NCBI GenBank assembly: GCA_003971905.1
Contig: RSEE01000079.1
Location: 186,001-250,000, forward strand
Length of the DNA stretch: 64,000 bases
Source of the DNA: Moniliella sp. 'wahieum'
Lineage: Eukaryota
Reading direction: 5' to 3'
Shown: one piece after another, positions 55 to 63,520 of the stretch
Layout: every line of letters starts with the position of its first letter
Position numbering within the stretch: the first letter of the stretch is position 1
The notes under the pieces: model-generated
Databases searched by the model: none
Told to the model about the DNA's origin: nothing
The model's input: only the letters and a program-made list of their open reading frames with translations
Made by a program: the position numbers and the translations under genes

Positions 55-225
55 AGAGGAGGATTATCGATGTATCGATGCCTCACTATCATCGATCGCC
101 AGCACTCATCGTCGGGCCCATTATACAGCCAATGCACGCCAATACTCCCGGCCATCGCGAACCGAGGTGAGTACACTGAGTAACTGAGTACTGAGTAATA
201 CTCAGACCGAGTACTGAGTCGGGTG
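55..225. repeat. Palindrome tract (ATCGAT and AGTACT units, T-N-A joined)
   Basis: tatcgatgtatcgat, atcatcgatcg, actgagtaactgagtactgagtaatactcag. Confidence 0.8.
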
Positions 226-607
226 TGCTTGGGTGTGCTGTCTGCAACTAAGTACCACTCTAGGTGGCCAGTGACGTTATGACGGCGGTGAGTGACGTGT
301 GGTGTGTGACATGTGATGGCGGCGAAAGCATCCAAGGGGCCCCAGATGAGTTTGGCAAAGTTCTCCCGTGGTGGGCGGACGAAATGGGCGCACCGAGCGG
401 CCGCGTGTGCCTGCTTGCGAAGCAGTGCATCTTTCCACATGCCTCACTAGGCAATGGCCAGGCCCATCTGTCGCCCCCGCCCCCCTATCTCACCGGTCAC
501 CGGCCACCCCCAGACGGATCGAGCCAAGCTCTGCGTGTAGCGCGTAGCACCCTAGTACCCGGTGTCCGGGGTACCGCCTTTCCTGGGCCGTAGGCCTTCT
601 CACCTGC

Positions 608-785
608 GACTGAGATTTGGGATCTGAGTCTGAGGTCAGATCGGAGACAGCTCGAGCTAGTCGTTGGCGCTTTCGGTATGCACGTTACGCGTTACATGTT
701 ACAGCGACTGCTGGCTAGCTTGAGCTTGACGCGTGACTAGGACTAAACTGGTATGGGTGACACGGTGGCCCAGCGCTCAGCGCTG
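608..785. repeat. Palindrome tract (AGATCT, ACGCGT, ACATGT, AGCGCT units)
   Basis: cacgttacgcgttacatgttaca; cagcgctcagcgctg. Confidence 0.75.
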
Positions 786-6312: not shown

Positions 6313-6699
6313 GCGGGCAGCGTAAGCAGCGTGGGGGCAACGGTGGTGGGGAAAAGAGGGTGTATGTGACGGCGACGAGTCTGCGGGCGGTGTTTTCTTC
6401 CGTCGGGATGCAAGTGGCTAAGGAGGCTGTGACATGTGATGCGTGCCGTGACCAGCACCCAGTGACCTTGAACAGCTTGAACGTTGCGCGGGGGATGATG
6501 AATGGGTGATGCGGCAATGTTGATAAGAGCGGGTGGCTTCGAACTCAAAACGGAATTTAAGCAACTCACCCAGCCGAGCAATGCCCACTGTTGCAATTGC
6601 GACGTGGCAACATTTCATGCCCACGCCTCAGGCTGAGGCGCAAGCCCAACGATGCGCTAAGCCACACCAACCTGGCCGGGAGCCCCATCGGATCAGCGC

Positions 6700-7012
6700 C
6701 TACATTAACCGGTAACGTGTAACGCGGCCGGTAACCGGTAACCTCTTAAATACATTGCTCCCATGCAAATCACCCGTGGAAGGTTGAATGTCGGATGCGC
6801 TGATGGGGTGCACGAGGTACTGCGGTACCCCGAGGCGGAGGAGTGGTGGCGTTATGGTGCCTGATATGACGATCGATGGATCGATGAGCTCCCAGCTGCG
6901 ACGGGTTGCTAGGTGCGCATGATGCATGATGCATGCTGCATGCTGGGAGCAGCCTGTCACAGTCCCAGCCATTGGCTTGTCACAGGCTGCGTGGCACATG
7001 TCACTGTCACGT
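6700..7012. repeat. Palindrome tract in the divergent CSC1/Tup1 promoter region
   Basis: taaccggtaac, ccggtaaccggtaacc, gcatgatgcatgatgcatg. Confidence 0.75.
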
Positions 7013-14824: not shown

Positions 14825-15960
14825 TCTGATTAATCGATTAAGCCTTAGGCCTTAAGCCACCATATGCACCTTGTGCCCCTCGCCCGGCTAGCAGCGAGAG
14901 AGACAGAACGGATGCCAAGTCACACTAGTCACTGTTTCTCGGATACTGAGGTGCTCGATGCTCTGGATCTTCCGCAGGCAGCCAAGCTTCGTCAGCTGAA
15001 GGCTGAGAGGTTCAGCACTTAGGTGAGTGTTTCAAAGCGCTCCCCGCTTTGAAGCTTAAGCTCCTGGGTCGAAGCTTTAAGCGGGGCGGAAGCTGTGGCG
15101 GCCCTTGGTCCATTGCCTGACCGCCGGACGCGTGGCTGCGGAGCTGCCTGGGGGCTCGGCCGGGGATATGGGGTCTCTCTCCAGGGTCTAGCGGCGCCGA
15201 CAGCGACGATTATTGACGTTTCAAAATTCACCTAACCGAGTGGGATCCGAGCGTGGCTGTGACTCGTGACTAGTGACTAGTGACTTTTCGTAACCTACTA
15301 GCAGCTTGAGTGTACTGGGAGATCTGAGAGTATACTTGAAGCTTGAGTACTGGTACTAAGTAACTGAGTGCTAGGAGACCACCGGTCCTACGGACCGGTC
15401 TGCTGGGGCTTCCCCCCAGCTTGTTCGCGACCTTAGCCACCCTTCCATCCTACCCACCTCGTTCCACCGTTCCACACGCGGGATAAACGGGTCGGCTTGG
15501 GCGCAGCAACTGTTTCTTTGTCCCGGCCTTAAAAATTCCGTCACTGATATGGTTACATGTTCCCCCTGTCCCAGCCTTAAGCTCTGTCAATGAAATGGAC
15601 GTGGGGTAGAGATAGGTGCGAGTGGATGGGGTGAACGTGTGAACGTTGAACGTATAAAACGTTCCAGAAGAACCTCTGTTACATATGTTACAGGTGTTGA
15701 CTGGTGACCAGTGACGCGATGGCAACAATCATTAATCACCGGTCCAACCGCTGTGAAGTATTAGGCCTTAGGCCTTAGGGGGCTAAAGCCCACAGGGCCC
15801 GAGACGAGGCAACTAAGAGTGAGATGAAAGAGGGAACGGACAACCATTTTAGTCATTCGCAACGTTAGACATTGACTACTCAACGTACCGAACGTTGAAC
15901 TCAGTAGTCAGTAAGTCGGTGTACTCAGTGAGCGTGAGCGCTCAGGCTGAGCCCCAAGCG
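14825..15960. repeat. Several palindrome tracts (AGGCCT, ACTAGT, AGTACT, AACGTT, ATTAAT)
   Basis: ccttaggccttaag, gtgactagtgactagtgac, taggccttaggccttagg, gattaatcgattaa, aacgttgaac. Confidence 0.8.
15371..15476 (-). mobile_element. Helitron-like 3' terminus (twin GC hairpins plus CTAG), copy 1
   Basis: Similarity to 63544-63670 starts exactly at CTAG; hairpins accggtcc-tac-ggaccggt and gctgggg-ctt-cccc(cc)agc. Confidence 0.55.
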
Positions 15961-18780: not shown

Positions 18781-19758
18781 TCAAGTGCACAACTTAAAAG
18801 AATCTATATATGAAACGCCCAGGCTGCAGGGGGGGCGCCGGGGCTGGCGGTGGCGTGGGGGGACAACACTGGCGCCATGCGGGTGGACCACCGGTGGACC
18901 ACCGGTGGTTGCGTCTATAACCGCATGCAGCTGCGCCGATGCTCTTGCCTCTCGACTACCACCACCATCACCACCGCCTCTCTCTCGCTGGCCACACTGT
19001 GCTATCAGAGCTGGCGCCATGTGCCCGGCTCGTTGCGCTGCCATTATATACACCCCCGCCGACGTGCTTGCTGTGCAAGGGCCTGGCCTCGGTATGTCCA
19101 CGCCCCCCGGGCGGATGCTTGTCGGACTGACTCGTCTGTGCGCAGCTGACGGAAACGAGTCGACCACGCCTGGTGGCATGGTCTTGCCTGGTATCCTTCA
19201 CGTCAAGATATCGGTCATGCCTCCCAACAGCGATTGAACATCAACGACAAGGGCGCTTCGAGCGGACGGTCGACGGCGACGGTTTCCCCGGCCAGGGCTC
19301 GACGGTCAGTACCTGCGCTTTGTCCTTATCCGCCCATACACTGACAACGCCTTTAAGCAGGATGATTGAAGAAGGCGCTCAAGTGCTGCAGCAACGACCA
19401 CGGAACATGTGCAGGCTTGCACACAGATCATCGTTCGCCGTATGGTTGCGGGACTCATTCTCCCTCTCGAACACGATGACGCTTCGCCCCCACGCCGCAA
19501 GTTGTATGGCCCTTGTATCTTTGCCCTTCGGTCCCTATCATCTCGGCGTCCCCATGATGTTTTTGGTCCGCGATTAACGACGAAGGCAAAGCTTCTGTGG
19601 TTGCCGCCGTCCTGAGGCTCCTCGAACAACCTGTCGTTGCCTTGGCGCTCCTCTACGTCTCTGTGTCTAAACAACCATGGCAATGCATGCTTTTAAAGAT
19701 AATCCACTGCCTGATCTGATCTGATAGCATCGTGGCACCCTAGCCACCACCCTAGCCG

Positions 19759-19834
19759 CCAGCCTGGTGAAAATCTGTGGCTAGCCTTGCCACCAGCCTG
19801 GTGAAAATCTGTGGCTAGCCTTGCCACCAGCCTG
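19759..19834 (+). repeat. 34-bp tandem duplication in the subterminal region of the TIR element
   Basis: ccagcctggtgaaaatctgtggctagccttgcca x2. Confidence 0.9.
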
Positions 19835-20683: not shown

Positions 20684-23212
20684 TCAAGCCGCAAGAGGTG
20701 GGATTGGCAGATGGGGCATCTCCCGCAACTGCGAGGCCCACTGGGACAGAAACTCCCTCCCCGCCCCTTCTGCTGAGAGGGTATCGAGGTCCCCAACGAC
20801 GCACAGTTGTTTCCGCGGCCGGGTGATGGCCACGTTCAACCGGCGTGCGTTCCTCAAGAAGCCCACTTTCTTTGCGCTGTTGGAGCGCACGGCGAGGAAG
20901 ATAACGACGTCGGCTTCCTGGCCTTGCATGCTGTCCACCGTGCTGATCTTGAGGCGTGGGTAAAGTTTGGTGGCACGAATGCGGTTCCCGTTGGTTGGGT
21001 TGACCAGCTTCATGTTGGCCAGCAAATTGGCTTGGCCCGAATAGGGCGTCAACAGGACCACATCTTCCTCCTTCACGCCTTTTTGAGCAGGAGAATGAGA
21101 TGGTGGAACGCAATCATGGCCTCGGACGGGTTCTCCAAGCTTTGGGAAAAGTGAGTGAGCTTGATCTGCTCGTTCATCTCTCGGTTCGACGTATCGTACA
21201 CCACAATGGGGCGGGCAATGAGGCGAGAAGGTGTGAAGATCGCCTTCCGCTGCTTGGGGTGAGCCTGGAGGTAAGCATGCAATCCTTCCACCTCGGGAAT
21301 CCAGTCCACCTTGGCCGGCGGGCCAAGCTTGAGCCTGGTATCGGCGTTGCGGCTGAAGGCAACCAGCTCGCCATGGTACATGGCGTCGCTGGGATATGAC
21401 TGGATTTGAGTGTTGAAACGGTATTGGGTCGTGAGCAAGGTGAGTGCTGAAGGACCAGTACGGTGTACGCTCGCACCCACTCCACTAGGGACGTAGCTGT
21501 CCTCCAGCCGTTGGAAGAGGGTATTGCGCAAGGACTTGGGCGTGGACGGGTAGCCCTCCTTCAAGCCCGAAACGCCATAATTCGTATTGGGTCCAGTGAT
21601 CACCATCGGCTCCAGCTGATACGGGTCACCCACCAACAGTAGCTGGCACCGACGAGCCTGGCGCAAGAGTGGGATCCAACTCAACGCCTCAGTCGCTGCG
21701 CCGCTTCGTCAATCACAATCAAATCAAAGTCGCCTTCCAGCTTGGCGGTGCCATGGAGTGTGGCGAGCCAGATCTCAGGGACGCCGGGAGCCTTATTCTT
21801 CTGCTGGCCTTTGGCCTTTTTGGACGGAGGCTTAGCCGTTTGCATAGAGCGCTTGCGCTTCTCAAAATCCCGCACGTCTTTCTGCATGCGGGAGGGATTG
21901 CCGGTCCGAGTTAACATGACCGCATTGTCTGCAATCGGTGCTGCTAGAGCTGAGAGGAGTTTGAGGGCAAGGTTATCGACCGCGGCATTGGTAGGGGCTG
22001 AGAGGAAAATGCGGGCGCGCGCGGGGGCGCGTTGCCTTTAGGGGCGACGGGCAGAATCTGGGTCCCCAACGTGACCTGGAGGACAAGCTCAACGATGGTG
22101 GAGGTCTTACCCGTGCCAGGCGGCCCATGGATAAGGTGAAAGGGGAGGTAAGCAAGAGGGGCATCACGCAGCCGTTGTAGCTCCCGCGGTTGTTCGCACG
22201 CTTTGACCTTGCTGGTTGTGAGAACGTTCCTGGCGGTGGTTGTACAGCAGCGTTGGCTCCACGTAAGGGGAGGCCGTACGGAAGGTCCACATTGGGGAGC
22301 GGAGCACGTTGCGGATCGCACGCCTTTGTTGCTCATTAAGGTTGGCGTTGAAATTGGGAAGGGGGAAAGGGGGCAGGTAGCCCTGGTTCTTCTTCTTTCC
22401 CTCAGTGACCCAGTGTTCTGAAAATGATGTCGGATCCAATAGGGAACGGGTAAGGGGTGTCTTGAGCGTACCAGTGCCCTTGATGATAGGGCAGTTCATG
22501 CTCTCCATCGCCGCTTCAACAGTAGAAGAGGGCACACGCCCTGGCCCAGCTTGCAGCAACTCGTTAGGCATGCGAATGTTAAGACCGACGCCTTCAGCTA
22601 TTGCATGCAGCGCGGCGAGCTGTATAGCATAAGTGGAATAGTCGATTCGCGCAACCACCCTGACAGAAGGCGGAGAGGTAAATACACTGCGGCCCACCTG
22701 GGCCACGACAACTTTCAATCGATCAGGCTGGACATCGGTAACTGTGCCCAAGATGATCTTCGGGGGGTCTTTGTTCCAGTACGTCGAGTAAGGAATGCGG
22801 GAGTTCTGGAGCACAACGGGCTGACCCGGTGAAATAACGTGGGGCAGCATCTTTTCAGCTGCAATCAGAGATAAGCTGAGGACGTGTCAGGGCTGTCAGC
22901 CTCTGGATGTAGAGTATCAGAAAAGGCGGCAACATACTGAACGAGTTTGCGCTTAGCGAATGATTCCGTATAGTCGTGTACCACCCTTAGTGCGACAGAG
23001 ATACCCAACCCTCGCCAAATAATGGTGTGCCAAGGAATCGGCTCAAGAAGGTACCTGTCCCTCTTTCGCTGACTGACAAGCTCGCGAAGCAGGAGGGTAT
23101 GGTGTTTGTGGACAAAATCTTGGATCTCACGGGTGGTCCAGCTCTTCGTGTTGGTATCATTGTTGGTCGTGGCGGCAACCCCATCTTGAGAAGCTTTCGA
23201 GTCAACCGTCAT
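20684..23212 (-). CDS. UPF1-like SF1 helicase (DNA2/NAM7 family, closest in layout to Hcs1/IGHMBP2)
   Basis: NLNEQQRRAI, LIHGPPGTGKT (Walker A), NAAVDNL, IVIDEAAQ (Walker B), LVGDPYQL, LTTQYR, TPYSGQ, STVDSMQGQEAD, RRLNVAITR; N-terminal FVHKHHTLL.RE. Confidence 0.85.
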
Positions 23213-23917: not shown

Positions 23918-24517
23918 TGTCACAGTGCGGCGGACTCGAGATGGTCCGACCGAAGCTAAGGCCCGCCTGCTCCGCACATGCCCAGTAGAGCGTGCTCCGC
24001 AGGCCAACCAAGTGTGATGATGGTTGGCTAAATTAAGTATCGTGGCTGAAGGGCCATGCTCCGTGCGACAAAATCGCCCCCCGCCCAAGTCCAAGTCGGC
24101 CGGCCTAAATAAGGCCACCGAGCTTCCAGTGCCGTGGCGGCATCTGCCGTCCCGTCCCCGTTTCCGTTTCCTTTCTCGGTCGCGCCTGTGGCGACCAACC
24201 CCGTTTTGACATGTCTTCCTTTCTACACCCCCCTCTTGTATCCGTTTCCCTTTTGATCCTGCCTGTACCCCTGGTTGATGGGGATCTTTTCCCCCACCTT
24301 CCATTATCGTCTCAACCCCCTCGTCTACCCTCTCGTCTATCCTGTGCGACTCCTGCCGGTTTTCCAGCCAATTGATCCAGTACAGGCAGTCTACTTTTGT
24401 TAGCGTCCGACATCCCCTCCAATCTCGTCCTCCAGCGATTCGTCAGTCCAGTCGCGCGAGCCCTCCTCTGGCCGCGTCGATTTCCAGTCTCAGTTGAAGC
24501 AGTGTTTGTCCGCCGCT
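23918..24517. mobile_element. Truncated second copy of the 1078-1918 LTR, inverted orientation
   Basis: Begins TGTCAC; reverse complement of about 1316-1918 with scattered substitutions; other terminus and TSD not found. Confidence 0.85.
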
Positions 24518-26874: not shown

Positions 26875-28350
26875 CTGCAAGAGTACTGAGTATAAATAGA
26901 GGAGTAGTACTGTGTGAGTGCACGATGTGAGTACACTGAGTACCGACTACTGTTTGAGTACTTAGAGTACTGAGTGTAAGTAGTACTGTTGCGTGTGTTG
27001 AACGTTGAGAACGTTTTGAGTACACAACTAAAGGCGTACATTGTGTACTGAGTACTGAGTGTACTGACCTAGTGACCGGTGACCTGTGACCTGTATCTAC
27101 TGTCTGCTGCGGGGCGGAGTAGGGCGGAGTAGGCGTTATAGTAATGCTGGCCGAGTATGGCGGAGGACCAGCTTGTGCAAACTGAAAAGCTTGAAGAGAC
27201 AACAACCACCGGTTGATCATCGATCATCGATCATCGTTTAACGTTTAACGTTTAAAATTTAACGTTTAATTTAACGTTTACCGTGTTTATCGTTTAGATC
27301 TTACCGGTTACCGGTTACCTCTCGATTGGTCATGAATAGGTCAGTGGTCACCGGTCACCGGTGGCTTACACCTATCACCGGTCATTAATCATTAATCACT
27401 CCGGTCAGTGATAAGTGTTCACGTTAACGCGATTAACGATTGATTGACGCCGAGGCCGGCCGAGGTCCTGTGGATGTTTGACAAGTGAGAGTGAGGCCGG
27501 TACCAGTAAGGCCGTGAGGCGCGTGAGGCCTCAGCTGAGGCCTGAGGCCCTGAGGCTCAGGCCTGACCAGTGACTACTGACTAGCTCGCGATACGGGCAA
27601 TAGCGCGTTGGTAATGGGCAATGGGCCCGGGGACGCAACAGGGGTCGGTGTCCACGATGTTCAGAGGCATGATGTTCAGGTACACATACAGCACGGGGGC
27701 ATTGCTGAATGATATGAGTAGACGATCCGTGGGCTGCGTGATGCATATGATTGGCCCGCCCGTTATAGGAAGGGCCTGCTGTTCAAGGAGGAGACTGGGG
27801 GATGTTGTTTTGAGGAGAGGTACAGGAGGCTATGAGAAGGGTGGGCCACACGTTAAACGGTACGCGTTAAACGTTAACGGCGAATGTGGGTACAATTTGA
27901 AGCCAGCAAACCATAGTAGGTAGAGGGAGCACTGATCGCGATTTGTGGGCAACTGTAAAAGGGTCGGACAATACGAGTGAGACCAAGTACAAGGTATAGG
28001 CAAATGATGCACTGGTATAGACAGACGGAAACAGGGTCGGCGAAGTGCAGGAGAATATTTACCTGATTGGCTAAGAGGGCCGTGACAGCAACGTCTTCGC
28101 GCTTCACATTCACAGTACGTGTTACATGTTGTACGTGTCTGTCACACATATCACATGCAGTGATGGTGTGACATGTGCTTGTTACATGCGCTAGTGTACA
28201 CATTGTGACGGGGCAACGGTTCCAAGTGCTTTGGCGTACCCCAGCACGTGCCAACTCCTGGAAACACTCTCAGTATATTTAATAGTCACTAGTCCCCTCG
28301 CCCGGCGTGAACCTTAGGCCGCGTAGGCCTTACCGGTTACCGGTTACCCC
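26875..28350. repeat. Largest palindrome tract: successive blocks of AGTACT, ACCGGT, ATCGAT, AACGTT, ATTAAT, AGGCCT, ACATGT units
   Basis: gtactgagtactgagt, gatcatcgatcatcgatcatcg, tttaacgtttaacgttta, ttaccggttaccggttacc, cattaatcattaatca, ctgaggcctgaggcc. Confidence 0.9.
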
Positions 28351-28563: not shown

Positions 28564-31500
28564 ATGTCTTCATCCGCATCGGGTATACGGGCGCCCATCG
28601 ACGGTGTAGGACTCCTACGCCGACGCCGTCACCCCAATGCCCCTCCCCCACGCAGATCTGGGCAGATGTATCGGGTTGGGCAGCCCATCGGTTATTTTGC
28701 CGCACATGGTACGCCCTACCAGAAAAAGTATCTGACCAAGAAATTGGGCTTCTTCGTTCTTGTTTTCTTTCCTCCTACCGCCCTTGTCAGCTTAGTGATT
28801 GCTCTTGTCCCCGTCCTCTGGGCCATTGCAGACCACACTCTCAATGTCGTTCAATTGGCCATTGATCAGGCCAACCTGACCGCACTCGCCAACAACTCTT
28901 TTCCTCTCTCGCTCTCTGGACAGGTCCGTTGCAGTCCCCTTTTTGACTCCTTTTCTTGCGTAAATCAGACTCCGCCTGACCCCTAAGAAACAGAGTATTA
29001 AGGCTGGCATTTTCCCAGCCTCGTTGTACTTCCGCGAGCCGCTAGATGTCTACTGGATGTCCCCACCCCCGGAAATGAAGGAGCTACACCTGGGAAGCTT
29101 CCCACTGGGGCGTGTGAGTGTCGACAGTGGCCACGGCCAGGTGCTTCAATCCACGCCGTTTACGATTGCTAATGAGGAAGCGTTTGGTCAATTTACCGAG
29201 TTCCTCGTCACCCAGCCGCGGTTTACCTGGAACCTCGTATGTAACAACACCCATGTTGAGGCTCTTGGCTTCTTGCCAACGTACAAGAACTACAAGTTCC
29301 AAAAACACGTCAATTTCAACGGCTTTGACAACTTCCATGACGTTCAGCTGCTGGACTTTCAGTTGCCAGGTAACGACCCTTTGGACGGCATAACGTTCCA
29401 AGCCCTGACCACCTTGATTAACCCATCGCCTTTCTCGGTGCAGCTAGGATACCTCAATTTGGATCTCTACTACAAGGGCCACTACATGGGCCCAGGCGCC
29501 AGTGCTGAACCGGTTAACATTACCTCTGGTCACAATACTATCCTTCTCACAGGTCGATTACTGCCTTACAACACCAACCAGACCGCTCTTGACATCACCA
29601 GCGATATTTTTACGAAATATGTCAATGGCGAACTCGTCCCTGTGGTGGCCAAGGGTGTCTCGGCGACACAAACAAATGGGGACGTGATCTCGTGGCTAAC
29701 AAAGGGTATCAAGGCGCTGACGATCAACGTTCCGCTGCAAACCCAGCCCCTCGGCCCCATCAAATCCATTGAGATTGACGAATTCAGCATCATCTTTTCA
29801 GAAGACTCTCCTTGGCAACCGTTGGCCTTCTCTGACAACCTTAAAGCGATGATCGGTCTACCTTTTGGGTTCCAGCTCAACATTGTCGACACACAAGACA
29901 TGATCAAGCTGATGTATAACAACTCGGTTGTCGGTGTGGTGGAGGGTACCTACTCCAATTCGACTCTAAGTTTGAACGTGGTAAATGCCGGTTCAACGGC
30001 GGGGACCTTAGCCTTGACCTTACCTCCCTCACCTTTGGCGCTAGGGGGTAACCAGACGCAGCAGGATTTATGGACCCAGTACCAGGATGTGTTGGTATTT
30101 GGTGTGAACACCTCCACTCGTCTTGCTGGTGTCTCTCACGCCTTGACCGATACTCCCGTTGGGCGCATCCTCCTCTCTCCTATCAACTTTGACGTCGAGT
30201 CCGGACTGACGGGGCTCCAGGGACTGAACAAGTACCCAACTGTGATCAGTGCTGTGGATCTGACAGGGGGTACGACGGATGCACTGCTACTCTCAATTCA
30301 GACCACCATCATCAACCCCTCGAACCTGAACCTCACCACCGGCACGGTCAACTTCCAATTGGTCAACGACGTGGTTTTGGGAACGGTAACGATGCCCAAT
30401 CTGCACCTCGACTTGGGGGAGAACAATGTGACAGCACAGGCCGTCTTTAATCCTCGGGCAGGCCTAATGATCCTGGTGACCCAGCGACGTCCTAAGTGCA
30501 GTTATGCAATGGCAGAGAGAAGACAGGAGCTGGGTTGAACCCAGACTGAGGATCAGAAGAAGGAGAAGAAGGAGAAGAAAGGAGAGCGGCACTAGGCCAG
30601 GGGATAGGGATACTGGTGTGGTGCCCGGATGAGTAAGATGGTCAGGAGTGCCGCGGAGGTGGCTGACCCATAGGACCCTGGTCAACAAGGCCCGACAGGC
30701 CAAGTTACTCTTAACCGCTTCGTATCGGGGCAGGACACCTTGCTTTACATCAACGGGTATAACGGCTCCTCATCCATTACCTCACTTAATCCTTCGCTCG
30801 AAAAGATTCGGATCAACACCATTCTCCTGGCCTGAAGCAAACATTGGTATCAAAAGCGCAGCTCCAAGTGCTCAACACTACAGGCATTGTCAACGACACG
30901 GCAGATGCCGTGGTTTCCCTCGCCAACCCGTTCAGTACCGACTTGACCATTACTCACATTTCTTCGGACGTCTTCGCATACAGGATCAATTTGGCTAAAA
31001 TCGATTATTCGCTCAACTTCCCAGCCATGGCGAACGCCACTACGCTCTCACCGACCATCCCACTCACTTTAAATCTCAATCCCCCCGATATCTTTGGGGC
31101 GGTGAGGGCTTATGCTCAAATGGCCGGACTTGATCCAGGATTCATCGATGGAATCTGTGCTGTGGGGGGGTACAATCTCACTCCGACAGTAGATATGCCA
31201 CCACCGCCGGTAGCACACCTTTCAGTGGGGGGGGCGAATAAAAGGGATGTGGCGAGCGACGGAGTGGAGTGTTGCATGACGGAGGAAGAGGATGCGCTGA
31301 AGCATGATGGATTGGACAAGCGTGGCCTCCAAGTGAATCGCCATCAGAAGCGCAACATGTTTCATGACTTCAACCTCACCAGTTATGTGGGTGAGGCGTT
31401 TGCGCATGCGCTCAGCAACCTATCTGTGGTGGCCAACACAACGGTCGGTGACTACGCTACCTCCTTGTCGATGGCTCAACTCAATGTTCCGCTAGCGACG

Positions 31501-34500
31501 GACAATACGCTCTTCTACCTTCTCCCCGTTCTCGCCCAGCCGATTGTTCAGCGGATTGTGGACAAGGCACTCCTCGCGATCGATACGGTCACAGTCCTCA
31601 ATCCTCAAGAGACGACGTTTGGGGTGCAAATGCAAGGCACCATCACAGAGGCTGGGCCGTTTGACGGTCTGGTTCACTTTCCCCAGGGGATGCAGGTCAA
31701 CTACGAGGGCCGACTGTTGGGCCAGATTGCGTTCCCAGACATCACCTTGGTTGGGGATGTGGGAGCGACGATTAATGTAACGACAGTATTCCAAGTGGCC
31801 AACGTGACGTTTATGGAGGAATTTACCAAGGCGGCGCTTACCGGCCCTTCTTTCGCGTAGGACATCACAGCTGGAGGGATCGTGGTGGATGCGCTTGGTA
31901 TTTCGGTGCCTAACATTACCCTGTCCAAGAAGGTTGTGCTCACTGGCTTCAATGGTCTAAAGGGAGAGGTCCAGATCAACTCATTTGACTTGCCAGGGAA
32001 CGATCCACAAGGAGGGATTCATCCGTCAGCACTCTCATCAACAACCCCTCCCAGTTGGGTATGGAACTGTCTACTTTTGGGGTGGACGTGGTAGGGAACA
32101 ATACATTGCTGGGTCCTGCCGCAGCCGCCAACACCTTCACATTGGCCGCACTCGCCCAAACGCCTCTCAATCTCTCTGGCCAGTTGCTTCAGCAATCCAC
32201 GAGTGCAGGACAAGCTGTACTTAGCACTGTGTTTACCAATTTTGTGCATGACATCCCAACGGCCCTGATTGTTAACGGTGACCATGCTGGGCCAGCCAAT
32301 GTGTCCTGGCTCAACAACGCAATCAAGGTGCTTAATATTCCGGTCACGCTTCCCGCTGCAAGATTCGGCGTCATCCGTGGTGTCACGCTCAATCAGCTTT
32401 CTTTAGGGTTCATGCCCTCCTCAGCCTGGAGCCCTGCCGCCAGTAGTGTCAACACCACGGCCCCTGTTTACCTCCCGTTCGCTTTCCCCATCAACATCAC
32501 CCAAATTCAGGGGCGATTCATTGCCAACTATGGGTCAGGCGATGCGGCGGTCCTCGACATCCCTCCCTCCTCTGCAAAGACGGATGTGAATGCGTGTGCT
32601 CACGCTCGGGTTCGATAATGTCCCTTTGTTTCTTCGGGACCGTCTCACCCCATCTTTAGCCACTTTCTTGCCGATGCCACCTTGCAACCTCAGGTGGACT
32701 TCGGACTTCATGGAGCAGCAACTGCTTTGGCGGGACAGCGGCGGGTGTGGTAACCATTACGGACATTCCATTTGCAGTGAATACGTCCATTTTGGGCTTG
32801 CAGGGCTTTAATGCCCATCCAGCCAATGTGACGATCTGGACGTCTTCCACGGCTACCCCTCCTATCTCCAGATCAACCTCAACACCCACCTCTTCAACCC
32901 ATCGGACATCACCATTAGCACAGGCGATGTGCAGTTCCAAGTTCTATACAACGACCACCCTGTCGGTCCGGCAGCAATCCAGAATCTGGTAGCTGTGCCG
33001 ATGGAGAACATTGTCCCCACCGCCTTGCATTATTCCCCTCAGGGAGCCGCGAATGTGCAAGCGGGGCAAACTGTACTCAACAACTATGTGGGCAATGTGA
33101 CCACAGTGGCTGTGGTGGCAGGATATGACAACTCAACTCAGGTACCTTCCCTCGCCCAAGCCCTGCAAGGTATCCGCCTAACCACAAGATCCCTCCGCTC
33201 GGGAAGCTGCTGATCACCGAAGGGAACCTCACTGTTCCGCGCAACATTGATGCCGACAACACGACGTTTGTTATGGTCACGATTGCCAATCCCTTCACCG
33301 CAGCGTTGAATATCAAATCAATCGTAGCGGCTCCTGGTACGTCCCTCTCTTATTGTTGTGTGCCGTAACAATAATGACTAGGGACTGACGGCATTCGCGG
33401 GTATCGAAGTGTACAATAACTTGACATTGGGCTCCATCAACGCGGATTTGTCGCCTGTCATTCATGCACCTGGGCACACTACTACAGTCAGCCAGGCCAT
33501 TCCTATGGCGCTCAATACGAACCCCAAAATACTCGTTAGCCTGCTTTTGCAACTGGCTCAGGCAAGCGGGACGTCGCTCGGACCTTGGCCTCCCTTCCTT
33601 CAGCGCATCATTGATTTACCCGGGAATGCCTCGACGCAAGTCAAGGGTATGCCGGGGGAGACGAAAGCTCTTGTCCCGCTAATGGGGCATTTGATCTACA
33701 AGGAGCCATGCTCCAAGCTCTTAAGGGGCTGGCAGTCACCATCCCCATCGTGACGGATGTCGATATCGATGAGTATGGTGTGACTCTTAACTTCAGCCAG
33801 GCCCCTGTTCCGATTCACACGGACGAATCGGCACTTTACCTTCTTGCACCGGCGGGAGCTCCGTTGATCCAGCAGATTGTTGATCAGGCCGTATTGAGCT
33901 TTGCCCAAGGTAACATTACCCACGTTACCGACGACGGACTCAACGTGGACCTACGTGGAGAGCTTCTGACCGATGCACCAACCAATGCGTTGATCACTTT
34001 CCCTGTCCCATTGAGATTCGATGGAATGGCTCATTCATTGCGACCATCAGTCTACCTCCCATCTGCACGATACCTGGGAAGGGTGTGCCCAATTTGCTCA
34101 TCTCGGGTCAAGTGAATATCACGGATCAAGCTGCATTCACCGCCTTTGCCCAGTACATTCTCCACGATCCTCATTTACCTGGGAGATCAGCAGCTCCCAA
34201 GTGAATGTCTTGGCTCTGGGGATCACCTTCTCGGAGGTGAACCTGGTCAAAAACGTGACATTCCAGGCGTTCAATGGCCTCCCTGGTGTGGCCACCACCA
34301 CCTTTGACATTCCCGGCGAGGGATCCGACTACCTCTCCATCTCAGTTGGGGCGAATATCCCGTCGCCAGCAACGATGGGCATCGAGCTCAATACCGCCAA
34401 ATTCAACCTCTTCTTCCAAGGAACCGAGTGGGTTCCGCTCAAGCCGATGGACTTTCCTTAGCTCCCGTGGCTGTAACCTCGACGGTGCTGAATGGGCAGC

Positions 34501-40763: not shown

Positions 40764-42060
<1,297 letters not shown>

Positions 42061-42508
42061 ACTTGGGACTTCTGCGTCACCTCCTATCCCATCGGAGCAC
42101 TTTCTTCCCGTTGTTCTTCCTTGCCTTTTCTGCTGTGTGTGTGTAACTGTCCAGCTGCTTACTATACAAAAATATGCTCGTTTCCCCTGTGGTTGGCTTC
42201 TTGCTTGCATAGTGTCTGTAACAATTTGGCATCGACTCAATGCGCGCGAGCCCAATTGAATCGCCCCTACTGAACTCTTTTCATTTTAGCGACGTCCTGA
42301 GCCACGCGGCTAAGGGGATTGCAACATATGCTGAAGTGTATAGGAAAGTAGCGGAGCCGATCGATATTATGATAGGGGGCGAAAAATGGGCGTTGGTCGC
42401 AGGAAGCTGGAGGAGAGAGCTAGAGGATAGTACGGTTGAAAGCCCCTACTGGCTTACATTTTGCCAAGCTCACGCTATACCAGCCTTCGGAATCTGTGGG
42501 CTTCGCCA

Positions 42509-42640
42509 GTGACTAGTGACTAGTGACTAGTGACTCTAGTGACTAGTGACTAGTGGTATGCCAAGTCGCAGTAGTCAGTAGTCAGTAGTCAGTGGCAGTA
42601 TCAGTAGGCAGTCCAGCTAGTACTCGAAGTACTCAGTCAT
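42509..42640. repeat. (ACTAGT-G)n array plus GTAGTCA repeats
   Basis: gtgactagtgactagtgactagtgactctagtgactagtgactagtg. Confidence 0.9.
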
Positions 42641-43529
42641 CCTGTGTGGCAACATCGTATCCGGCCTCTAGACTGATGCTGTCTTAGATCTTATGAATAT
42701 GAGCACCGAAATACCATGGTCACGCGTCACTGCACTCCGCACGTTCTTTCAATCTCAGACGGTAGCAGTAGTGTGCGGACGGGCACGGGCTCCCGGGTGA
42801 TTCCACCCGGGTTCCGTTCCCCGTCCGGCGGGTTCCGCTCCTCCTTCTCTTCATCCATCTGTTTACACATCTGTCTGTCTGTCTGCGCTGCACCCCCACA
42901 AGTAGATGCATGCACATCAGTTTCCGCGGTCATTATAGTACTTTGCCCTTACTCGTCTCGCCCGCATATCTGCCACAATCAGTCAAATCCCCCTTTTATC
43001 GGGATAGCCAAGGGTGGCGGCTGTCGCCTTGCTTTCGGGGAACGAAAGCCGTGCCATCATATGATGCCCATGATAAAATGCTCCCAACCCTGGACCTCTG
43101 GTTACTTCCACAGTGGCTCAGCTGGCTGAGGCTCAAACTGGACGCCTCCTCAGTTTGAGCTTGAGTCCTCTGTGGCTACGCCACACAGCCTACGCCTGCT
43201 GTCTGGTTTGATTTCCTCAAGGGGCGCAAGTCGACATCATCGAGAGTTCAACGTTCAGAACTGCCAAAGCGCACGCAGATTGATACTGAGCTGAGGCTCA
43301 GCGCTACTCAAGATCTCGGGGAGGCGTTCCTCACAGAAACGTCCAGGCTGTTCTTAGTGGCAAAAAGGGGCTGTCGGAGGTCCAAGCTGGTTGCAAGCGA
43401 AAGGGATGTGTGCACGTGTGTGGCCATTTCTGATCTGAACTCTGAACGGGGATATCCATAAACGCCTTTCGGGTAGTATTAATTGGAACATGCTGGGCGC
43501 GGCTTGTGTGCTGGTGGCGGGCTGCCGTC

Positions 43530-43915
43530 GTGCATCATGCATCACGGCCATGGATCATGCATCGGGTATACTAGAAAGGTCAAGCCGGTCAAGCTTCAAG
43601 CTTCAAGCTTCAAGTGAGAACCAGCTGCCTGAGATCGACCGTGGGTATGAGTAGCGGATAGATGGCCGGGATCGATGATCGATGAAGCTGATGAAGCTTC
43701 TTGAAGCTTGAAGCTCGAAGCTCGAAGAACGGTATGTCGAGAAACATGAACTGCATGAATGTCATGAACCGATGGCGATATAACGATGCTGGTAATCCGG
43801 TAATCGATAATCGGTAATCGTCGATAATCGATAATCGATAATTGATCATCGATCATTGATCCGATCAGTGATCGATCGAGTAGATCTGTGCCAGTTAAAC
43901 GTTAAATGTTAATGA
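43530..43915. repeat. Palindrome tract upstream of the RING-vWA gene (ATGCAT, AAGCTT, ATCGAT, AACGTT)
   Basis: aagcttcaagcttcaagcttcaag, tcgataatcgataatcgataat, gatcatcgatcattgat. Confidence 0.9.
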
Positions 43916-49420: not shown

Positions 49421-51519
49421 GGTGGCCTTCAGCTCATAGCCATCCGACCTTCCGCCAGAAGTCGGTGCAGTTTCAAGCTGCTGGCGTTGCACCTGGTCGT
49501 CGATTATGTCAGCAAGGGTTTACCCCAGCACTATCGTTGATTCAACGTGTTGCCACAACTACCACCACAGTAGTGCAAGCTTGCCGTTCTTTCTGCATCT
49601 CGCCCCTGGGTCGATGGTCCCTAACTGCTTGATTACATCCTATTATGTACTAGTTACCTTACCTGTTACATGTTACCCCCGCCCCGCTCGTGGATCTTGA
49701 TCTCTTATGGCATCACCTGCGCCTAATACCAGCAGTATGCACAGTACTCCCTCTATTGGCCGAACATCATGCATCATGCATCATGCAAAATGGATGATGC
49801 TCGCACTGGCTACCCAAAGCCGCAAAAGCGCAGGATCGAATTCAAACTTTAAGCCGCGATTCCGCTCACGGTCAGCCGCTGCACGGCGAATCCACCAACC
49901 AACACCAGCCAACACCCCCTTCAACTTGGGCTACAACCGCCATGTCGCGTCAAACCATCGGACGCGGTGGCATTTCCATTGGTGTGCCTTCCTTTCTCCA
50001 TACCGCGTTCTCCGCGTACTAGGGTGCTTAATCCTTCCATCACCTTCCACCTACAAGCCTTGATATCTCACTAGAATCCTTACCAACATCCGCAAGTCAT
50101 TTGGGCTGCCAAAAGAACCGATCCCATGAAGCCGCGAGATGCTGTCTTGGGTGGCTTTGCAAAAGCGCTAACGTACTATTCGTCCAGTGATCGAAGTGGC
50201 CTAAATACGCTCTTCCTTCTCACTGTCTAACCATCGTGGTCCGAGGCAATTTGCAAATGTCCACGCGCTCTTGGAAGCGATCTCAAGAGAGGCGTGCGAA
50301 TATAATTATGAAAGCAGGATCAGAGTGCTGTCGAGTTACGACTCGACCCTCTACCCATAACGGGCTCCGACTGGGAAACATGTCTCTTGATACGGTGTGA
50401 TGTGCAAAGCACAATTTTGGTTGCGTAGTCTTTTCTCGGTATGCATAGTGAGTGTACTGGCAGTAGAGCGAAAGGTTGTGCGCCAAGCGCGAGATGTGAG
50501 GAACTGACTGTGACAGGGGACGGGAGCTTGTTGAATATAACCGCTCCTCGTTTCGGGACGTAACCGGATGCCACTATCCACATATAGCGTATTCTAAACC
50601 CAGGAAGAGGCCAATTCCAGGAGCCTACTGGAAGGAGTTGAGGTGAACTTCCTCTTCTCCTTCTCCTTCTCCCTCACCGCCATCTGCCTTGGCCAGTTGA
50701 CTTCCTCAACAGAGCTGAATCGGTTGACATCGTTACGTCGGAACAACGGAATGCTGCAATCTAGGCGCGCGTAGAAGATGTTCAGAATGCAATGTCGTGT
50801 CGGAGAATGGTGAGTGGTGGAGTTGAGGAAGCGTTTGGCGCGTGTGATCATTGTCTCCTCTTCTGTCGGGTTTAACAACACTATTATACATAGAGCAAAG
50901 CCAATACAGTTTCCTCTTCCAAGAGAAACGAGCACGTATCTCCTTGTGTATACTACCTTCCGGAACGCAACAGCTATATATGCCCCTCTCTCATTATCAA
51001 AGTCCCTCAAGTGTGATCCATCTCCTTTCCTGATTTATCAAACGCACCTTCTCCCAGCATCACACCTGTAGTCCTCCGTCCCCTTTTGGGCATACCCTTA
51101 CCCCTAATCGTCTTCAGTTTGCAAAAATGTGTGTTGATAATATGTATTTGAATTGGGCGGATCGTCTGTTGCCTGGCCTGTAAAACAGTGGTGAAGTTGG
51201 TAACCGGTAAAGGTTATAATGTAATGCCTTGGTCAAATGGCCAACATACCATGGGATGGCACCCCTACCGACTAAGAGAGCTAGGCGCTGACAATAATCT
51301 GATTAAGAGAGCACACACAGGCACAGAGACGAAAGAAGGAGGAAGTCGGTGCGGTGTCAGTACTCAGTAGCGGAGAGAAGTGAAGACACCGTAGAGTCAG
51401 GAGTCGACGCGAACACATTTTTTAGCACAAAAGAAGTCGCAGACGCGTGGACTGAAGTTGCCGAATAAGCCCAGCCTCGCGGATGGTGTCTAGGGAACTC
51501 CCCGTCAAAACTGTTACAG

Positions 51520-52245
51520 TTATTAAGTACTAATGATTAATGGTTAATGACTAGTCCTACAGGTTTCAACGGCATAAGCTTCAAAGTAGCTTCTTTAATG
51601 TGTACTAGCCAGAACAGGCTAGAACCGCGCGATAAAGCTAACCTGGTTCCTGACCCCCTGGGGCCGATTTTGCACGAACATGCGTTTTGTTTCAGCCTTC
51701 AGCTGCTCAGCGCTCAGCTGAGCCCCACCACGCGCCGCATGCGGGGCGCCACATGTGACTGAGAGAGATCGCCCAAGCGCTCCCACATGCGCCTAAGCTA
51801 CAGGGGGCATCTTAAGTACTAAGTACTGAGTACTGACGGAGTAAATGAGTACACTGAGGTACTGAGGCCTGGGCCTCTGACATGTGAGGTCTCAGAGAGA
51901 GGCCGGCCGGCTGAGGAGCGCAGTCAGTTCTGCTTCAGGAACATGGATTTCAGCGCAGCAGCTGTCAGCATGTCAGCATGTCAGATCTCTCAGATCTCGT
52001 ACGGCGCAGACAACCCTCAGGCTGAGGCCTCGGGCCCTCATGTATCATGCATCAGTACATCAGTGAATACTCAGTTGAGTAACTCAGTAGTACGTCAGTA
52101 CGTTACATATCAGTACTCAGTTACTCAGTACTCAGTATGAGTACCACGCGTTAATTGTAAAGGTTAAGCTTAAGTACGTTAAAGTGATCGATGATCGATG
52201 TTCACACTGAGTACTGATCCCATGCCTTGAAGCTTGAAGCTTGCA
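51520..52245. repeat. Palindrome tract upstream of DUF6533 paralog 1 (AGTACT, AGGCCT, AGATCT, AGCGCT)
   Basis: aagtactaagtactgagtactga, cagtactcagttactcagtactcagta, agatctctcagatctc, gatcgatgatcgatg. Confidence 0.85.
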
Positions 52246-52507
52246 CACCGGCAACGCCACTTGTCTGGGGTTCCACGTTCCTTCCACATGGTCGGGTCTC
52301 AGATCTCGGATCTCTTATACATGTCACAAACAATCACCCACGCATAAAACGGTGTATCATGCGTCATGCATCTTCCATCCCGGCGGTGGGCTTCGGTTCA
52401 AACCGTCTTCTTCATGTCCCCTCGGCCTCATATTTTGTAACTACTTATCCCACCATCAGGCCCTCTCTCTCTGTCACCACCATACACTTCGGGCAGGTCT
52501 TGTTACC

Positions 52508-54924: not shown

Positions 54925-55325
54925 TGAGTCACGTACGTTCAACGTTCAACACGTTCAACCCACTTGTGACCCTGAAGGTTTGAGGGCCTAATGGCTTCAA
55001 GCTTCAAGCTTCAGGCGATATAAATACCTCAACATTTCGTCAACATTTCCTGAGGGAGTCACTAGTCACTGTGACACACATGTGACAATCCATGTGACTA
55101 GTGACTAGTGACTTCGGACTAGTGACTGGTGACCGGCCTGAGGCCTGACGGCCTGACCTCTGGCTGGGCTGAGGCGCTGAGGCCTCAACGCCTCAACGCC
55201 TCAGCGTCAAGCTCTTCTTGGTGCTTCAAGCTTCAAGCGTCAAGCTTCAAGCCCTCAAGCCCTCAAGCTTCAAGGGTTACCGGTTACCGGTTACCGTTAA
55301 ACTTAGACGATTAACGTACGTTTAA
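54925..55325. repeat. Palindrome tract upstream of DUF6533 paralog 2 (AACGTT, AAGCTT, ACTAGT, AGGCCT, ACCGGT)
   Basis: gttcaacgttcaac, cttcaagcttcaagcttca, gtgactagtgactagtgac, ggttaccggttaccggttacc. Confidence 0.9.
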
Positions 55326-58955: not shown

Positions 58956-59409
58956 GATCTGCGCCAAGTTAGCCCGAGCTCCAATTTGAAGACGAACGAG
59001 GGAAAGCGTACGAGAAGAGTGGATCCGGGTAGACTCGGGTGGGGGCAAGCAAACGAACACCCCGCCAGCGGGGCTATTTAAGCACGGGTCCAAGAAGGAG
59101 TGTGCGAAGGCCGTGCGCAACCCTACCAGAAGACGCGCATGAACGAGGCAGGCCCAGACGCTGATCGAACACCCACGATCGGCCTCACTGGCTCAAGCGC
59201 CACGTATACTGCGCCCCTGCGAGGGCAGGCACATCATGCATCATGCATCACGCCAGCCCTCCGCAATGCGGCGAAGGGAGAGCGGCACACACTGGGCCCC
59301 CGCCGTGTCCAACATGGCTTCGGCCTGCTTCGACCAGATACCATCCCGCGCGCCAACGTGACTCAGTTAGCTGCGCACGGACTTTTGCGGGCGCCCGTCC
59401 CGATGAGCG

Positions 59410-59600
59410 CACGTGACGCGTGACGTGTAATACTGCTCGATCACTGATCACTCACTCGCCGCTCAGCCTGAGCGCTCCTGAGCTGCTCACCAGCTACTCA
59501 GTACTCAGTCTGAGCGCTGAGTGAAAGCTCACCTGAGCCTCAGAGTTCAGGGCGCTCAGGCCCTCTTCAAGCTTCCGGGCTCAGATGTCGATGAGCCTCA
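59410..59600. repeat. Palindrome tract upstream of cyclophilin (ACGCGT, AGCGCT, AGTACT)
   Basis: acgtgacgcgtgacgtg, ctgagcgctc, tactcagtactcagt, tgagcgctgag. Confidence 0.75.
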
Positions 59601-60268
59601 TCGTTGAGCGCGCGGCTGTGCTCTCACAGAGCCAGAGCGTCCAACGGAATACTACCTACCTGGACTACTTGTCGGAGGCTCAAGCCGTAAGGAACTCCGC
59701 TGCACGAGATTCAACGACAGCCAGGCGCCCTTGTCTCACCCTCTTTCTGTAGAGTATGATTTCACGGCAATCGAGTTCATAATTCGCCTATGACCGAATG
59801 ACCAGAGACGCGTAGCCACTATATGCACCGAGCTTGGACGAAAGGAGCAACAGCTGCAGGATCGCAGTCTAACACCCCACACGAACAAAGATGCGTAAAC
59901 GTTAAACTCCATTGTGGTCCGGCCAAACCAGCCCCAGGGTCGAGTTCTTGGCGTGAGCGCACCTTACTGGCACAGATTACCATGTATTAGGCTATGCCTG
60001 ACTCCAAAACCGGCGACCCGCCCTTCATTGCAGACGATACACAATCATCTATCGACGGGGAACGAGGACAACTCTTAAGTGGATGGCATAGTAGCTTGAT
60101 TGGCGACTGTCACTAGGCATGCATTGCTGAACTGAACATCTCGATGATCTGCTTGCCGGTCTCCGCTTATCAGGAGTCGCAATGCATGATCTCGGTGTAC
60201 AATGCCAATGGGAGCAGAACATCCAATAGAAATAATGACCCAGGTCCCTTGATCGACAATGGCTTAGT

Positions 60269-62833: not shown

Positions 62834-63309
62834 AGTGAGGGGTGGTTAAACGTTAACGACAGGTCGGGGGGCAGAACGAAGAGCCACAGGACGGTGGAGT
62901 TGGAAGTAATAGCGCAACGAGAAATGGAATGGTATCCATTGCCGCGTTATTGGTTGCGGAAGCTGGGCCACCTTGTGCATTTCCGACAGAGAATCGAGGC
63001 CCGAAGACCGAGCACACGGTAGATTATGGAAGATCCCTGCACGCTTCAACGCTACTGCCTAGTCTGGCAGGGCCCACACGTAAGCACCCTTATATATCCT
63101 CCCGTTTGTCCTTGGCGCTTGAAGCTTGAACATTAAAACACTGCCGCCCAGTATCGATCCAGTATCCCCTCGATAGTGGGTCCCACCCGATGCGTGCCAG
63201 GGTACAACAGGGTACAACTCGGGAGTACTCGGGGATCTACCCAGTGGATCGACTGCGGAGCAACCTCCAAGCTTCAGATCCAGACAAGGCGAGGGGGTCA
63301 AGTGCTCCA

Positions 63310-63520
63310 GTCTAGTGAGTGCTAAGCGCAAGCTGAGCCTCGCTAGTGCTGCTCAGCCTGAGCGCAGTGACTAGTGACTAGCTCAGTGACTAGTGAGCCG
63401 CTCAGACGTACTGAGCTGAGCTTCAGCGCTGAGCCGCTGAGCGCTCGCGGTGATCGACGTTGATCGATGATCGACCCTCAGGCCCTGAGGCCTGAGGCTC
63501 AGCGCGCGCGCGCCTCGGCG
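63310..63520. repeat. Palindrome tract upstream of the ceramidase (ACTAGT, AGCGCT, ATCGAT, AGGCCT)
   Basis: gtgactagtgactag, cagcgctgag, gatcgatgatcga, ctgaggcctgagg. Confidence 0.85.

Follow-up and report, generated by a model that had tools for sequence, protein, structure and literature searches.

Which process could fill non-coding DNA with short tandem arrays that share a symmetry rule but not a sequence? The question is raised by a 64-kilobase (kb) stretch of the Moniliella sp. 'wahieum' genome (contig RSEE01000079.1, positions 186,001–250,000), here called the window, from which all results below are taken. The window has a G+C content of ~55% and represents nuclear DNA of a fungus-like eukaryote. 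An initial annotation had described its intergenic arrays as repeats of 7 base pairs (bp), each built from a variable 6-bp palindrome that starts with A and ends with T, plus one further base, so that neighbouring palindromes are joined by T-N-A (TNA). It ascribed them to a sequence-independent fold-back process at TNA. We find that the elementary change behind the arrays is a 7-bp insertion at TNA whose inner palindrome is templated by one flanking dinucleotide, and we weigh which kind of process may have made it.

The period-7 palindromic arrays are real and far beyond chance. Tandem Repeats Finder returned many period-7 rows for the window, and exact period-7 runs of at least two copies number 60, compared with a mean of 2.9 in 20 dinucleotide-preserving shuffles. 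Exact tandem runs of period 6 (55 vs 12.7), period 8 (15 vs 1.25) and period 9 (7 vs 0.3) also exceed the shuffles, with period 7 showing the largest excess of all periods. A perfect 6-bp palindrome is contained in 46 of the 60 period-7 units, as opposed to 10% of random 7-mers, and 44 of these 46 have the form A....T. The arrays listed in the initial annotation were all found within a few bases of the positions quoted there. Its statement that arrays of C-, G- or T-initial palindromes are lacking holds for the 44 A....T units but not for two arrays, GCATGC-T (6930-6945) and TGATCA-C (59439-59452).

The same picture emerged when arrays of the form palindrome-N-palindrome were counted in the window for all 64 six-bp palindromes, the count by which the annotation had proposed to check its rule. 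At period 7, 23 of 24 such arrays are A-initial and one is G-initial, while periods 6, 8, 9 and 10 give just 2, 2, 6 and 1, and both the A-initial and the period-7 enrichment are thereby seen. Single palindromes follow suit: A-initial 6-bp palindromes occur 358 times in the whole window (182 expected), with the other three initials at expectation, and 7-bp odd palindromes centred on TNA occur 348 times (204 expected), with the other three centres at or below expectation. A tandem of "palindrome plus one base" is at the same time a tandem of the 7-bp odd palindrome y'x'-T-N-A-x-y, so that one symmetry plus direct repetition describes both.

The sharpest rule that we could formulate is TNA, a 4-bp palindrome and a second TNA with the identical N. 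This arrangement (TNA-pal4-TNA) occurs 105 times where 2.5 are expected, and the control centres ANT, CNG and GNC in the same arrangement give 4, 8 and 4. Palindromic TNA pairs with a gap of 2 bp are barely enriched (16 vs 9.7), and gaps of 6 or 8 bp yield too few palindromic cases for a verdict. The two N differ in only 15 further cases (7.3 expected), and 10 of these 15 have complementary N. As neighbouring N are identical and not complementary, the unit must be copied directly and its dyad symmetry is local. The view that every TNA joint is a centre of dyad symmetry is thus right for the local symmetry but does not extend to the neighbours, whose N are complementary only in those 10 cases. 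Long-range fold-back across TNA was rejected for the same reason, the identity of neighbouring N.

Fourteen of the 16 possible cores occur in the TNA context at comparable frequency, in agreement with the at least 13 A..T palindromes noted earlier; ATATAT and AATATT (cores TATA and ATAT) are missing. The base N is G or C in 70% of the units, exactly as at all TNA sites of the window, and is therefore not specially G/C but mirrors the background. Self-BLAST of the window gave a single array-to-array match among 10 pairs, and flanks are not shared. A satellite or dispersed repeat family was rejected on these grounds, the 14 different cores and the lack of shared flanks by self-BLAST, and the same two observations bear out the earlier contention that a symmetry rule is conserved instead of a sequence, for which slippage or a satellite is inadequate.

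The units are strongly confined to non-coding DNA. Ninety-five of the 105 lie in the 29.2 kb without open reading frames (ORFs) of at least 150 amino acids (aa) and only 10 in the remaining 34.8 kb, so that ORF-covered DNA is depleted of them 11-fold. The density is ~3 units per kb of non-coding DNA. Together the 105 units form 19 clusters, and 21 of them fall inside positions 26875-28350.

The order of parts within a unit could be read from its incomplete forms. Among 40 cases of pal4-TNA-pal4, 39 have an adjoining TNA and only one does not, whereas 54 of the 105 TNA-pal4-TNA have no full pal4 on either side. This comparison shows that the duplicated TNA lies outside and the newly added palindrome inside. 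The annotation had seen TNA as the joint between palindromes, and this has to be turned around: TNA is the repeated outer element, and the palindrome is a new inner one derived from a single flanking dinucleotide. A duplicated 4-bp palindromic target with an element-derived T-S-A triplet, following Tc1-like logic, was rejected on the single solo pal4-TNA-pal4 among 40 and on N following the background.

The origin of the inner palindrome is seen from the bases next to the unit. We scored a left match when the dinucleotide preceding the first TNA was the same as the second half of the palindrome, and a right match when the dinucleotide following the second TNA was the same as the first half; on each side a match has a random probability of 1/16. 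A match on one side or on both was found in 57 of 69 isolated units (left only 25, right only 15, both 17, neither 12). The inner palindrome is templated by one flanking dinucleotide. One could suppose that the 40 one-sided units are two-copy arrays that have decayed, and this was ruled out by their unmatched side, which is random-like with respect to the array expectation: 26 match at neither base, 8 at the second base only and 6 at the adjacent base only, compared with 24, 8 and 8 for random sequence.

Run lengths tell the same story. Over 88 loci the lengths peak at 5 and 6 matched bases, rise a second time at 12-13 and include single loci at 19 and 21. There are 87 period-7 runs with exactly 5 matched bases (37.4 by chance). 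Their spacer of 2 nucleotides (nt) is reverse-complementary to the two leading bases in 18 runs, where 2.0 would be expected, and to the two closing bases in 10 runs, where 2.1 would be expected. The elementary change is thus a 7-bp insertion that converts ab-TNA-cd into ab-TNA-b'a'ab-TNA-cd or, as its mirror, into ab-TNA-cdd'c'-TNA-cd. The other flank of the insertion is unrelated sequence, and the ancestral targets, obtained by removing the 7 inserted bases, show no preference beyond the T and the A. Both mirror-image products are present (25 left, 15 right), which fits a cut symmetric about N. Three perfect chains in which the unit switches were also found, and their outer flanks are as predicted in 4 of 6 tests.

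The one-sided units bear directly on an ordinary explanation, microsatellite dynamics, in which heptamers that can form hairpins slip more and palindromic units expand in consequence. Arrays of 3-4 identical copies do exist, and the arrays can form DNA hairpins in which TNA is looped out or a single N bulges; the array at 42508-42555 folds with -12.6 kcal/mol (z = -5.5). Multi-copy arrays are moreover under-predicted by the simulation described below, so slippage probably aids their growth. Yet the 40 one-sided 12-mers carry an inverted and not a direct 2-nt copy, which slippage cannot make, and slippage as the origin of the units is refuted by these products. The bias to A..T (44/46) is also left without explanation, although G:C closing pairs are more stable, as is the restriction to period 7, and 3 of 4 folded arrays are not significantly more stable than shuffles. 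We therefore regard microsatellite dynamics as a very unlikely account of the arrays.

The flank matches also speak to footprints of elements with a 3-bp duplication. The IS5/PIF-Harbinger lineage classically targets the 3-bp TNA, and a PIF/Harbinger-like or other element duplicating it could leave two bases of each inverted terminus (xy...y'x') between the two TNAs. The arithmetic is right, as TNA + 4 + TNA gives +7 bp, and TTA-GGCC-TTA at 15761 would suit GG...CC termini. On the other hand, 14 cores at similar frequency would require as many families with different termini, and element-derived bases would not match the dinucleotide outside TNA as the core does in 57 of 69 isolated units; units without any flank match are a minority of 12 in 69. 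We hold such an origin to be highly improbable.

A selective origin can be judged from the same data. The arrays sit in intergenic, promoter-side DNA and are palindromic, and TGA and TTA are bZIP half-sites, so tandem sites for dimeric factors might have been selected as cis-regulatory elements. Against this stand the 14 interchangeable cores, an N that just mirrors the background, cores that are templated by neighbouring bases, and arrays that are found 3' of genes too, for example past the actin gene at 42508. Selection, besides, generates no copy rule, and we give this explanation hardly any credence. An assembly or base-calling artefact, judged on internal evidence only, has a next to negligible probability: the units are complex and not homopolymers, decayed and variant copies are present, the 11-fold depletion in ORF-covered DNA is out of keeping with it, and the flank-templating rule would be hard for an error process to produce.

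What kind of event would give this product? We worked out by hand what a cut with a stagger of t bp would give if the flank hairpins were then opened at a distance of k nt from their tips and each overhang was either kept or trimmed. When one overhang is kept and the other trimmed, the net gain is t + kL - kR. The exact 7-bp gain, the TNA duplication with the same N and both mirror forms all follow if t = 7, the cut is centred on N, the hairpins are perfect and k = 2; k = 3 gives an identical product because T and A are complementary. Of the agents named in the annotation, Transib with its 5-bp cut does not give this product if the target is symmetric about N, while a 7-bp symmetric cut does, and neither hAT (8-bp nTnnnnAn with an odd palindrome) nor PIF/Harbinger (3-bp duplication) reproduces it. 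The fold-back idea itself stands in so far as the structure of a single event is that expected from P-nucleotide-like hairpin opening; it falls in so far as there is no fold-back across TNA, the N being the same in 105 units.

Several other cut geometries were tried and rejected. A symmetric 5-bp duplication (bTNAc) would place cc'b'b between the TNAs in place of a nested palindrome. An asymmetric 5-bp duplication (abTNA) predicts the spacer TN' as often as b'a', and TN' is seen at most once. By our derivation, hAT with an 8- or 7-bp duplication and hairpins offset by 1 nt leads to A-N-T as the centre or to complementary N, and the window shows neither.

We put the chance that the units are excision scars of a cut-and-paste transposon with a 7-bp staggered cut and flank hairpins just short of even. 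The enzyme would cut the two strands 7 bp apart, symmetrically about N, at a target nnTNAnn, and the simplest agent would be a cut-and-paste transposon inserting with a 7-bp target-site duplication. On departure of the element both flanks would be sealed as perfect hairpins. Host enzymes could then nick the hairpins 2-3 nt from the tip, leaving duplexes whose ends coincide with TNA and which carry the self-complementary 3' overhangs of 4 nt, cdd'c' and b'a'ab. One overhang would be ligated by end joining, the other removed as a flap and the gap filled, giving TNA-palindrome-TNA and a net gain of always 7 bp. Steps beyond what was inserted where are our inference from 64 kb of sequence.

Such a scar would be a new TNA with palindromic flanks, and repeat hits there, or ordinary slippage, would lengthen an array of identical units. 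The inner TNA has palindromic flanks after the event and could add only the identical unit, while the outer TNA could add either the identical unit or, via its other flank, a different unit in phase, which would appear as a switch of unit at a shared joint. Over time heptamer chains would come to fill the non-coding DNA. At a target that was an odd palindrome beforehand, both overhangs would be cohesive, and this could explain why two-sided units (17) exceed the random-flank expectation.

The period-8 and period-9 arrays appear as relatives of the heptamers (e.g., 52114-52129, 175-190, 63427-63442, 55182-55203 and 42527-44544). They are TNA-centred units, mostly TGA/TCA, with 1-2 bases added in the middle of the palindrome, next to it or at N. 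The extra base is found inside the core (GT-T-AC, GT-A-AC, GC-C-GC) or beside it, or the dinucleotide is doubled (AGTGACT-CT-AGTGACT). These junction bases are variation of the kind given by end joining.

A simulation of the insertion rule at uniformly chosen TNA sites yielded, as observed, mainly one-sided units and almost no solo pal4-TNA-pal4. Several results nevertheless weigh against excision scars. The simulation is too low for two-sided units (5 vs 17), for units without a flank match (3.7 vs 12) and for multi-copy arrays, and this shortfall means that re-targeting of palindromic sites, slippage and decay must act too. The arrays (GATCATC)x3 and (GTTTAAC)x3, which have different N and different cores, abut in phase at the palindrome centre (27215-27255), and the one-event model does not predict this. 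The expected by-product TNATNA is not enriched (32 vs 42 expected), and for the +11 junction, which was not counted as such, the 8-bp-gap class is little enriched (59 vs 43.4). A density of ~3 units per kb would need very frequent insertion and excision.

Nor was a responsible element found in the window. No transposase domain was detected by a Pfam scan of 129 ORF translations, comprising 16 ORFs of at least 200 aa and 113 of 178 stop-to-stop ORFs of at least 110 aa, the rest of the 178 being already scanned or in overlapping frames. A search of 20,924 7-mer pairs in the window, 890 of them TNA-centred, revealed no terminal-inverted-repeat element with a 7-bp duplication; three weak candidates emerged, none TNA-centred or credible. 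We know of no family that joins a 7-bp nnTNAnn target with perfect flank hairpins. The product is also far more uniform than the footprints of experimental excisions reported for Candida albicans (PMC5873905).

These points lend some weight to an identical 7-bp event without a transposon, made either by a TNA-cutting, hairpin-sealing host nuclease or domesticated transposase or by a short polymerase template switch. The structure of the event is silent on whether a mobile element was ever present, the window holds neither element nor transposase, and uniform products at very high density are more easily reconciled with a dedicated or constitutive process than with sloppy repair after rare excisions. 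For the template switch, a repair or replication polymerase would copy two opposite-strand bases after TNA and then re-copy abTNA; TNA self-pairs except at N and could seed such a strand switch. We found no path, though, by which abTNA would be re-copied without pre-existing homology, and a zero-loop fold-back would be sterically impossible for a polymerase. To our knowledge no host nuclease of such specificity has been described, and hairpin opening normally yields just such mirror-image products and an exact 2+2 palindrome. A transposon-free event is accordingly possible but, in our judgement, unlikely. It seems quite unlikely that a dedicated enzyme system of this lineage, be it an unusual polymerase switch or a nuclease or domesticated transposase that forms hairpins and cuts around TNA with a 7-bp stagger, is constitutively active on open non-coding DNA as an undescribed endogenous process.

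The densest cluster of the window holds 19 TNA-pal4-TNA units at 26999..27886. Its members include an AGTACT-G array (27045), ATCGAT-C x3.1 (27215-27236), AACGTT-T x3 (27235-27255), ACCGGT-T x2.7 (27301-27319), ACCGGT-C (27346-27362), ATTAAT-C (27382-27398) and AGGCCT-G (27535-27549). A short distance downstream, TTACC-GG-TTACC-GG-TTACC (28330..28348) runs from the T of TNA to two bases past TNA, the 5+7n form. A cluster of 6 units at 185..745 contains the unit-switch chain cgTTAcgcgTTAcatgTTAca (683-703), which can be parsed as CG-TTA-CGCG-TTA-CATG-TTA-CA and whose outer flanks match both cores, as the model predicts. Four units, among them ACCGGT-A (6728) and ATGCAT-G (6917), lie at 6430..6945 together with the G-initial exception at 6930-6945, and 7 units at 15267..15786 comprise ACTAGT-G x2.9, AACGTT-G and AGGCCT-T x2.7 (15761).

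Immediately 3' of the actin gene, the cluster at 42508..42738 shows AGTGACT x4.0 and then x2.9 with a +2 (period 9) junction between them, followed by CAGTAGT x3.6, a unit with one mismatch; the ACTAGT-G array of this region spans 42508-42555. Upstream of a RING-finger gene, 12 units at 43248..43914 include AAGCTT-C x3.7 (43589-43614), ATCGAT-G, AAGCTT-G, ATCGAT-A x3.1 (43821) and decayed copies. Three units, including ATGCAT-C x3.3 (49765), are found at 49666..49792. The 13-unit cluster at 51201..52246 has several period-8 variants and contains AGTACT-A (51813), AGTACT-C (52122), AGTACT-G, ATCGAT-G (52185), AAGCTT-G and AGCGCT-C. Another 12 units at 54939..55302, with the period-8 variants GCCTCAAC and TCAAGCCC, comprise AACGTT-C (54935), AAGCTT-C, ACTAGT-C/G, AGGCCT-G and ACCGGT-T x3.1. 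Towards the end of the window, 6 units at 59234..59914 (ATGCAT-C, ACGCGT-G, AGTACT-C) accompany the T-initial exception at 59439-59452, and 6 more at 62847..63504 include AAGCTT-G, ACTAGT-G, ATCGAT-G and AGGCCT-G.

The genes between these clusters were recognised through Pfam scans of the window ORFs. They encode an RSN1/PHM7 channel (2316-6417, minus strand), a Tup1-like WD40 protein (plus strand, starting at ~7157), an AAA_11/12 helicase (20687-22495, minus strand), a large DUF3712/Tag1-like protein (29024-35372, plus strand), an RRM protein (37133-38446, minus strand), actin (40764-42057, plus strand) and a RING protein and a PH_10 protein (44552-46455, plus strand). A kinase fragment, Coa1, a ceramidase and a cyclophilin are also encoded in the window. 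Rfam and tRNA scans of the window gave no match. The DUF3712-domain ORFs form a series on the plus strand (29024-30538, 34015-34458 and 35004-35372), which points to a single, very long Tag1-like gene that follows immediately on the densest heptamer cluster. The closest relatives of this DUF3712 protein are 68% identical. Cluster look-ups assigned proteins of the window to fungal clusters that span several phyla.

Other repeats were found besides the heptamers. A non-coding pair of ~603 bp (1317-1918 and 23918-24517) lies on opposite strands with 94% identity and has 9-bp inverted termini, GCGGCGGAC...GTCCGCCGC, with a single A on each side of each copy. Checks of this pair revealed no TNA, no 3- or 7-bp duplication and no Pfam match, and it may be a small non-autonomous mobile element. 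A direct repeat of 241 bp (61385-61625 and 62535-62773; 99% identical, 1150 bp apart), whose copies share an 18-bp tandem array (61457-61518 and 62607-62668), is the outcome of a recent tandem duplication or else the pair of long terminal repeats belonging to a small element. At 18882-18908, GGTGGACCACC x2.5 is an 11-bp perfect odd palindrome in tandem, which shares the odd-palindrome logic but has period 11 and a G-A-C centre and so falls outside the TNA rule. The segments 53230-53642 and 56306-56726, on the same strand, share 75% identity over 425 bp and probably represent paralogous exons in neighbouring genes. Two tandem repeats are unrelated to the heptamer rule, a 34-bp unit x2.5 (96% matches) at 19751-19834 and a 20-bp unit x4.2 (89% matches) at 61742-61826.

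If the excision-scar reading is true, a large share of the non-coding DNA has been written by one simple operation that can be decoded. Each scar would keep its ancestral state, as deleting 7 bases recovers the target, and insertion history, target choice and repair outcome could therefore be read from a single genome. Excision footprints seldom allow such reading, as they mostly vary too much to be recognised. Repair of breaks with hairpin intermediates would then be a major source of promoter-side sequence, of heptamer microsatellites and of perfect palindromes, the latter being potential dimer binding sites, cruciforms and fragile sites. It would also give a handle on the responsible transposon or nuclease, with a predicted 7-bp duplication nnTNAnn and perfect flank hairpins. 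Should no mobile element be responsible, the units would represent an undescribed endogenous mutational mechanism, and a dedicated enzyme system would make the dominant insertion mutation of the genome and act as a continuous generator of palindromic promoter sequence, of a kind not yet described in any eukaryote.

How does this product compare with known systems? In the literature that we searched in full text, which leaves most subscription journals outside, no account was found of variable A..T palindromic heptamer arrays or of footprints as a bulk intergenic component, in agreement with the annotation, which knew of no described system with this signature. The direct heptamer repeats TAACTGA reported from intergenic DNA of Beggiatoaceae and cyanobacteria (PMC4679880) resemble the arrays in being many, short and of 7-base units; they are, however, one fixed non-palindromic sequence in bacteria, whereas the window has 14 interchangeable palindromic cores in a eukaryote. 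The mitochondrial (A)n-(T)n palindromes described in Fusarium (PMC7218506) are unrelated. Ordinary microsatellites and satellites differ from the arrays in the 14 cores and in the 40 one-sided units with their inverted 2-nt copy.

Among transposon footprints, the canonical one of Tc1/mariner and Sleeping Beauty is TA + C(A/T)G + TA. It is similarly a short odd palindrome with an ambiguous centre base between target copies, and repeated cycles could build arrays. The constant triplet is element-derived and inner there, but in the window the constant TNA is outer, N equals the background, no TA rule is seen and the period is 7 and not 5. PIF/Harbinger and IS5 share with the window a TNA triplet duplicated with the same N. 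Their N is usually A/T and that of the window mostly G/C, as in the background, and 14 inner forms are found here. The PIF/Harbinger duplication is given as 3 bp (PMC12730594), and a 3-bp duplication cannot produce the direct copy of the dinucleotide outside TNA that was seen in 57 of 69 units. The same source lists hAT7 and Kyakuja as fungal transposons that make 7-bp duplications (PMC12730594).

For the hAT superfamily the target is the 8-bp nTnnnnAn, and Galileo, of the P superfamily, has a 7-bp duplication with an A-N-T centre, which does not fit. By our own derivation an 8-bp hAT duplication would commonly give +7 bp as a 6-mer repeat with a 1-base spacer. The hAT target sequence predicts T....A repeats and an A-N-T centre, while the window has A....T (44/46) and TNA over ANT by 105 to 4. 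Footprints of hAT elements (Ac/Ds, Hermes) do resemble the units in retaining the duplication with palindromic additions, and fungal hosts are reported to make them (PMC5873905). The Ac/Ds excisions described there for C. albicans and yeast carry palindromic P-nucleotide insertions centred on the complement of the element-adjacent base, with 28 footprint types in 128 C. albicans events (PMC5873905). Such hAT palindromes are odd with a complementary centre, whereas neighbours in the window share N (105 vs 10 complementary).

The closest likeness is to perfect-hairpin systems, that is, the P nucleotides of RAG-made V(D)J coding joints, Transib and Muta1, where an even palindrome arises from the bases at the flank end through off-centre opening of a perfect hairpin. 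The nested 4-bp palindrome of the window is exactly of this type, a flank dinucleotide plus its reverse complement. The families differ in duplication length (5 bp for RAG/Transib and 8-10 bp for MULE, against a gain of 7 bp here), and their joints are heterogeneous while one outcome dominates in the window. We know of no TNA preference for RAG, Transib or MULE. Flank hairpins that the transposase or recombinase makes and host enzymes open are reported for hAT, Transib, RAG and the MULE Muta1, whose hairpin of 43+43 = 86 nt is perfect and whose excision in yeast was >90% precise (PMC5499845), and nick/hairpin cleavage with 5-bp duplications is reported for RAG-like elements (10.1101/2023.08.20.553239). 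P-nucleotide scars of hairpin-type breaks are thus already known, and it is the 7-bp, TNA-centred form found here that appears to be new.

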